Assembly: GCF_037042905.1 (NCBI RefSeq)
Contig: NC_087245.1
Coordinates: 35,528,001 to 35,592,000, forward strand
Direction: 5' to 3'
DNA length: 64,000 bases
DNA from: Lytechinus pictus
Lineage: Eukaryota
Made by a program: the position numbers and the translations under genes. Below, piece by piece: positions 24,295 through 24,354 of the stretch. The notes below the pieces were generated by a model. That model saw only the letters and a list, made by a program, of their open reading frames with translations, was not told where the DNA came from and did no database searches. Each line of letters begins with the position of its first letter. Within the stretch, counting starts at the first letter, position 1.

Positions 24295-24354
24295 TGTGCA
24301 GAGAAATGTCCTCCAGAACAGCTGGATCCTCAGTCGAGGTCCTCCTGCCAGCCA
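24295..24354 (-). repeat. 60-bp exact direct repeat, 5' terminal copy
   Basis: Identical to 20639-20698; forms the very 5' end of the element. Confidence 0.95.

Follow-up and report, generated by a model that had tools for sequence, protein, structure and literature searches.

Head-to-tail copies and a rearranged hammerhead motif in R2-related retrotransposons of Lytechinus pictus: a possible circular RNA template

Non-LTR retrotransposons are taken to use a linear RNA primed at its 3' end, and the ribozymes that reviews attribute to them are HDV-like and lie at the 5' end. Among those encoding a restriction-like endonuclease (RLE), full-length copies normally lack terminal repeats. R2, R4, NeSL, CRE and HERO each have a single ORF with zinc finger, reverse transcriptase (RT), CCHC and RLE segments and a non-AUG start; RLE elements leave 5'-truncated copies with a fixed 3' end, and a longer transcript is processed by a ribozyme. 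In R2, the 5' HDV-like ribozyme is carried on an rRNA co-transcript and insertion is confined to one target site. As far as the accessible text of the respective papers goes, R2 translation does not require a Met start (PMC13580325) and HERO insertion is mostly non-site-specific (PMC4640811).

Penelope elements with hammerheads (Cervera & De la Pena 2014, PMC4209133) are autonomous retroelements of about 3-4 kb with GIY-YIG proteins; a minimal type I hammerhead lies in their repeated end and their copies form head-to-tail partial tandems. The available part of that paper proposes cleavage, a circle and more-than-unit reverse transcription, considers a possible need for ribozyme dimers, and describes a double-hammerhead control that spares monomer circles. 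Animal non-LTR retrozymes (bioRxiv 10.64898/2026.07.22.740005; see also PMC7229834) occur as tandem copies with hammerhead-defined monomers and circular RNA, and are small and non-coding. Turning to the ribozymes themselves, the type SGC hammerhead (Eckert et al. 2023, PMC10085705) is described in the consulted sections as having the core motifs CUGAnGA, GAAA and UH in the order S-G-C, a short Ia-IIb linker and an extra helix E that ties the distal ends of stems I and II, its block C being assumed uninterruptible. The core variants reported in the accessible part of Perreault 2011 (PMC3088659) involve short insertions and weak stems.

The window, a 64,000-nt stretch of the L. pictus genome, holds on its minus strand the insertion laid out in Table 1. 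Like the RLE elements listed above, it has a single ORF with a non-AUG start, in which the RT is followed by a C-terminal CCHC and a PD..D/ExK-like endonuclease; the first Met (aa 158) lies downstream of the zinc finger. R2 proteins are the best PDB matches to a profile built from 17 relatives, and named relatives at 42-49% identity come from fish, amphioxus, bivalves and lamprey. We take the element to be HERO-like, a provisional label. Names of reference HERO-type elements are given in the accessible part of PMC7650587. The GIY-YIG domain and telomerase-like RT of Penelope-like elements are absent, their place being taken by a LINE-type RT, zinc fingers and an RLE, and the 1183-aa ORF in a 3.7-kb unit that encodes its own RT and endonuclease differs from the small, non-coding, non-autonomous retrozymes. 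The element would thus work like Penelope and the retrozymes yet belong to neither, since its protein is of RLE type and it is autonomous. The family in the window (family 1) and two others (families 2 and 3) are about 40-49% identical to each other in amino acids, family 2 standing at 49% to family 1.

Table 1. Features of the insertion and its surroundings (positions in the window; aa, residue of the ORF)
Feature	Position	Strand	Remark
Whole insertion	20619..24354	-	1.02-unit copy of an RLE non-LTR retrotransposon (HERO-like)
60-nt remnant of upstream unit's 3' end	24295..24354	-	+20 to +79 past the predicted cut
3' copy of the 60-mer	20639..20698	-	usual position in the 3' UTR
Head-to-tail join at CACA microhomology	24291..24298	-	
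True 3' terminus of the family	20619..20638	-	fixed priming point
3' fragment of older high-copy SINE/L2-like repeat with (CAT)n tail	20467..20614	-	outside the element
Left half of older, different RLE element (target)	24355..25000	-	resumes below 20467
Stop-to-stop ORF, 1183 aa	20724..24275	-	
N-terminal zinc finger	aa 86		
RT (RVT_1)	aa 425-683		motif AFMDD; E 1.5e-21
CCHC knuckle			between RT and endonuclease motif
Restriction-like endonuclease	aa 1058		PD..ExT
Rearranged hammerhead (predicted)	20661..20779	-	covariation, families 2 and 3
Xa	20779-20770	-	
Hairpin P	20769-20745	-	
IIa	20744-20740	-	
Ea	20738-20730	-	
IIIa	20725-20720	-	
H17	20719	-	
Predicted cleavage site	20718..20719	-	after AUA; by analogy
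Ia	20718-20713	-	
IIb	20707-20703	-	
GAAA	20702-20699	-	
IIIb	20699-20694	-	
Eb	20693-20685	-	
Ib	20683-20678	-	
CUGAGGA	20677-20671	-	
Xb	20670-20661	-	

The insertion lacks poly(A) and has no clear target-site duplication (TSD). An initial annotation of the locus had pointed to an exact repeat of 60 nt at its two ends, and the copies indeed agree at 60 of 60 positions. As was also claimed there, the repeat starts on the minus strand right after the core GAAA. This point lies 20 nt 3' of the predicted cut, and the copy holds Eb, Ib, CUGAGGA, Xb and all of IIIb save its first base. That it is no conventional TSD is borne out, the 60-mer being 3' UTR of the element in about 30 copies and the empty site lacking it. 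The upstream remnant is truncated on its 5' side against the flank, and its join omits the final 20 nt of the unit together with the initial 26 nt of the 5' UTR (reference copies L031 and L032); it is a 46-nt-deleted form, at CACA, of a junction that is intact in other copies. Because several young sibling copies also match the stretch exactly, the 60/60 identity does not by itself establish an origin from the same molecule. The exact boundaries of the 60-mer are incidental; the finding is a head-to-tail rule that runs through the families, together with an apparently new hammerhead topology.

One part of the annotation had to be corrected, namely that about 170 nt and a (CAT)n tail follow the 3' copy: the element ends at 20619, 20 nt past the copy. 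Among 29 scored family 1 copies (30 loci, the window's own 5' copy being dropped), 24 end within 3 nt of 20619, and 25 of 30 family 2 copies end within 2 nt of their common 3' end, so that both families combine a fixed 3' end with variable 5' truncation, the pattern of target-primed reverse transcription (TPRT). The sequence beyond is a separate repeat with 561 candidate copies, of which 40 were scored at 82-87% identity, the self match aside. The halves of the older RLE element on either side are contiguous in a paralogue, L100 (91%), and the locus is nested: a SINE-like piece entered the old RLE element at CATCAT, and the young element came last. The young element sits precisely at the 5' edge of the SINE-like fragment (20467-20614 / 24355), and that fragment was inserted in the CCHC codons of the third, older RLE element. 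A single chimeric SINE-plus-LINE insertion is disfavoured because the SINE differs by about 13-17% from its relatives and the element by less than 1% from its siblings. Flanks of different copies are unrelated to one another, as expected of the mostly non-site-specific insertion of HERO elements; this dispersal, the 3'-UTR location of the predicted hammerhead and the presence of the element's own 3' end upstream distinguish it from R2.

In the two HERO-like families, all eight copies that reach the 5' start carry their own 3' end directly upstream, which gives the comparison of 5' junctions that the annotation called for a uniform outcome and departs from the terminal structure usual for full-length RLE copies. 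Not one of 44 internal breakpoints (22 per family, within the retrieved loci and including a few edges of deletions or insertions) has the family 3' end upstream. The 5' region of family 1 matches five places, three of which reach the start: the window copy and copies on C8 and C2, which start directly after the family 3' end and whose upstream units measure about 900 nt and, with one internal deletion, about 2700 nt. For family 2, five of six 5'-UTR matches reach the start (L094, L161, L163, L164 and L176), each preceded by the 3' end. The start is here defined from the junction itself, as no free start exists for comparison. Upstream pieces are 37, 60, ~350, ~700, ~900, ~1000, ~1400 and ~2700 nt long, and six of the eight extend far past the predicted cut, contrary to the suggestion that junctions would never pass it. 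The register of the junction is identical in six of the seven copies outside the window; the exception, L176 (80% diverged), is offset by +3 nt. As in Penelope, the copies form partial head-to-tail tandems whose repeated portion carries the predicted hammerhead; all come from one genome. The sole family 3 copy near its start, L253, has no 3' end upstream and a SINE within its 5' UTR, and may be truncated. Elsewhere in family 3, the 5' part of L238 has a second copy 7.9 kb further upstream, flank included (G000:C4:30485710 and 30493599; 97%), likely a segmental duplication.

Covariation among the three families places a predicted hammerhead core close to the fixed 3' end, with the cut 100 nt upstream of it in family 1 and about 95 nt upstream in family 2. 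The core motifs CUGAnGA, GAAA and UH are present with stems I and III in register in all three families (stems of 5-7 bp). The cleavage site comes first, then GAAA and then CUGAGGA, which is the S-G-C order, and a stem I/II interaction helix and the short Ia-IIb linker of type SGC are present as well. Helices I, III, E, X and P change their letters and keep their pairing, as illustrated by stem I (UCGAGG/CCUCGA, UUGUU/AACAA and CAGCAC/GUGCUG), while II shows a letter change at one pair; stem I of family 2 is weak, its duplex being worth -1.1 kcal/mol. The fold first proposed from the window (X, II, E, III and I) is thus strongly supported by covariation, here drawn from three families of one genome. 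What departs from type SGC is stem II, which does not link the nucleotide following A9 with the one preceding G12: a direct pair between the base after CUGAnGA and the base before GAAA occurs in none of the three families. A direct stem II was rejected and replaced, in all three, by an X/P/II' junction. IIa and Ea lie upstream and enter via X and P, the upstream strand supplying Xa, hairpin P and IIa with zero unpaired bases between them. Block C (I - CUGAnGA - II) is interrupted, and the RNA accordingly breaks the assumption of Eckert et al. We read the fold as type SGC circularly permuted, its opening lying at A9/N10.1 and its closure being a four-way junction that splits stem II; helix E would correspond to the stem I/II interaction helix of Eckert et al. 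In size and arrangement the RNA is far from the minimal type I hammerhead of Penelope.

Since MAFFT misaligned the helices of the three UTRs, a descriptor was used in place of a covariance model or pair counts. It passes the three families and one site in the window, and none of 193 motif-matched phage and prokaryote control loci (among the matches listed) or of 6000 core-fixed shuffles (2000 per family). Because the descriptor was written from these same families, such controls speak for its specificity and not for activity. Rfam gave no match at gathering score within the window. The 8 nt directly before the cut are absent from two of 30 family 1 loci and none of 30 in family 2; the two loci are not mutual closest relatives, the site lies between short repeats, and a loss ending at the predicted cut is only a hint of self-cleavage. 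Nearly all copies span the cut site intact. A decayed relative of family 1, L248 (G000:C3:39856k), retains a recognisable 3'-UTR RNA that is mutated (CUGAUGA core).

Helix E extends stem III on both strands, and the lowest-energy fold of a monomer has Ia and IIb in the apical loop of a long stem, with IIa and Ib-CUGAGGA at its base. Modelled in this way, docking in cis would require that E open or that the long stem bend back on itself; a pair of copies, by contrast, could dock into each other while every helix stays formed. Such a two-copy lock would fit with the intact passage of nearly all copies through the predicted cut, and would match the double-hammerhead control of Penelope. In the family 1 minimum-energy fold, the Xb region (20657-20670) can pair with a 5'-UTR motif past the junction (24253-24268, minus strand), which could act as a switch on a continuous template; the pairing is not evident in family 2. 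The 5' UTRs of the three families contain short repeated hairpins and a motif like ACCAGGA.AG.CTGGT (window 24240-24294, minus strand; L031 4137-4230, reverse; L163 4287-4370; L253 370-420 and 690-715), candidate protein-binding or translation-start elements beside the junction.

A slight balance of probability favours the explanation that a ribozyme-cut unit RNA is closed to a circle and reverse-transcribed for more than one round, as proposed for Penelope (PMC4209133, in the part consulted). Of the origins suggested in the annotation, a circular or tandem template fits best with the head-to-tail layout of all eight copies; the corollary that copies open at the ribozyme site and never extend beyond it fails, most upstream pieces running through the cut. 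We envisage that a copy longer than one unit is transcribed and that its RNA is severed at both ribozymes, which releases unit-length RNA. The ends of this RNA would be either held by pairing in X, II, E and III, as a nicked circle, or ligated, as a covalent circle, the data fitting either. The RT/RLE protein would then prime TPRT internally, about 100 nt 3' of the cut, copy round the unit, displace its own cDNA and stop variably in the second round. The 60-mer would be the stub of such a second pass, on a template whose 3' UTR continues into its own 5' UTR; at the window, the RT would have skipped 46 nt at CACA and halted 20 nt before the cut. This copy is probably not self-renewing, as it lacks a complete upstream ribozyme. 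More speculatively, E may lock a single ribozyme, so that cleavage would need two copies on one RNA and a monomer circle would be stable, much as dimers were considered for Penelope. Absence of poly(A) and of a Met before the zinc finger is as expected for an uncapped RNA. We know of no RLE protein for which priming inside a circle has been demonstrated. LINE RTs perform rolling-circle reverse transcription in vitro to varying degrees, weakly in the case of Bombyx mori R2 (PMC11331410, accessible part), and the RNAs in R2Tg TPRT assays carry 40 nt of 3' homology (PMC12222951, likewise).

Individual loci bear on this proposal in different ways. L163 is a more-than-unit copy, as in the window; L164 is one internally deleted round with the same 11 nt at its beginning and end; and L161 resembles a twin-primed inversion in which the second arm passes back across the junction. 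Private variants common to both repeats of a locus number one in L163 (L177/L185) and two in L161 (L192/L193), privacy being judged among 30 loci with a background sharing of 29 in 272 pairs, and weakly suggest a single template. L094 and L176 stop about 61 and 42 nt past the junction, as would follow if a continuous template had been primed a short way downstream. The stops of L031 and L032 lie at 1068 and 718, and internal priming or later deletion may account for all four. Weighing against a circle, half of the eight junction copies are old and 3'-truncated, which could reflect later deletions, and no clear accumulation of 5' ends is visible at the predicted cut: they fall at +6, +9 and +20 in family 1 and on both sides in family 2 (L224, interrupted rather than truncated, was dropped from this tally). 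Internal deletions occur in L043, L163 and L164. L043 (G000:C15:24394819) is a mini-copy in which the last 12 nt of the element are joined to positions 222-556 and, together with the other two, displays kilobase RT skips.

The main rival keeps a linear RNA and lets an RT that reaches the 5' end jump routinely, end to end, onto a 3' end, often its own; the ribozyme would serve some different purpose, for instance in decay or in processing read-through transcripts at their 5' side, and the window join would be a jump at CACA. Jumps of this kind, aided by short complementarity, are described for the R2 RT in the consulted part of PMC13708176, the internal deletions just mentioned attest to frequent RT skips, the window join and L176 depart from the canonical join, and same-molecule jumps would likewise yield shared private variants and single rounds like L164. 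Yet a jump would be required in eight cases of eight, with an identical join in six of seven, and L094 and L176 would require priming within ~60 nt of the RNA 5' end. Nor does jumping account for the making of a fixed 3' end without poly(A) 100 nt from a conserved cleavage site, or say what keeps a live ribozyme from severing the end used for priming; we regard it as rather unlikely. The related suggestion in the annotation, a one-off template jump, could account at most for the window junction with its 46-nt skip and not for the pattern of the family. If a small number of tandem master loci were transcribed through and the RNA left uncut, the template would be a linear concatemer, with no circle, from which the junction is inherited. 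Identical joins, long upstream pieces and the unscarred passage of the cut site in most copies would follow; what makes this improbable is that a full tandem array was not found (starts total three in family 1 and five in family 2), that redundancy would shrink with each cycle unless renewed and yet is kept in two families about 49% identical, and that the conserved catalytic core is left without a role.

The annotation had also raised the idea that the 5' 60-mer is a functional terminal repeat giving Ib-CUGAGGA-Xb to the 3' region. It holds exactly these strands, and end-to-end pairing would occur in the cut unit RNA; its boundary is unique to the window copy, however, the upstream pieces in the other seven ranging from 37 to more than 2000 nt, and it would not relieve the tight linkers because Eb and Ib arrive still joined. 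A functional 5' half-ribozyme is thus unsupported, and we hold it very doubtful. Even less credence is due to self-targeted insertion, in which new copies land right behind the 3' end of older ones. The process is described for PLE tandems in the accessible part of PMC6765202, Penelope and Tx1 arrays are cited as precedent, and head-to-tail joins would result; the absence of the family 3' end at every internal breakpoint largely refutes it, and the unrelated 3' flanks and the private variants common to paired repeats also count against it. Least credible of all is a mis-assembly of the window locus. No read spans the 24294/24295 join in the sparse RNA coverage, and against such an error stand flanks that rejoin into the paralogous element, the same layout at seven other loci and the microhomology at the join. 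That coverage (three rRNA-depleted raw runs, about 6% of each, and one contig set), too thin over the element to favour any of these readings, falls almost entirely on the SINE within 20400-24600, leaves the element body nearly empty, and contains neither start or stop pile-ups nor end-to-start joints.

In metagenomes, the protein search found one locus, at 33% identity, with no CUGAnGA in its 3' region, and protein searches of viral and prokaryote contigs yielded none; pattern scans gave 19 and 54 viral and at least 120 prokaryote loci, of which none passes the descriptor. By eye and by motif scan, such a UTR RNA is absent from 15 distant RLE loci (L095-L109; ~25% amino acid identity). These loci belong to several other long-ORF RLE families, some near-identical between loci. 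Many ENA, Logan and JGI contigs with full-length relatives measure 3.5-4.3 kb, about one unit; such contigs may represent either repeat collapse or circular assembly. Nothing on a hammerhead or on head-to-tail copies of HERO or other RLE elements turned up in the literature covered, Repbase Reports and subscription journals lying outside its scope. The RNA described here resides in a genomic LINE, and the searched supplement of PMC10085705 has no match for Eukaryota, Metazoa or reverse transcriptase.

Taken together, we propose, tentatively and as something that could well be true while falling short of probable, that R2-related autonomous LINEs propagate via circular RNA made by their own ribozyme, with TPRT primed within the circle, and that this ribozyme is a hammerhead of undescribed topology, SGC permuted between A9 and stem II with a perfect four-way junction, which perhaps cleaves only as a reciprocal dimer and so senses a more-than-unit transcript. 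Whether or not a circle forms, separating the CUGAnGA block of a hammerhead from stem II goes against a published constraint, and neither the descriptors now in use nor Rfam would pick up such a ribozyme. Should a hammerhead-defined circle in an RLE element prove true, the strategy of Penelope and the retrozymes would exist in LINEs too, and a one-protein system would be available for probing a circle model that still awaits proof. Gene insertion based on R2 is a further field in which such an element would matter, because circular templates are stable.
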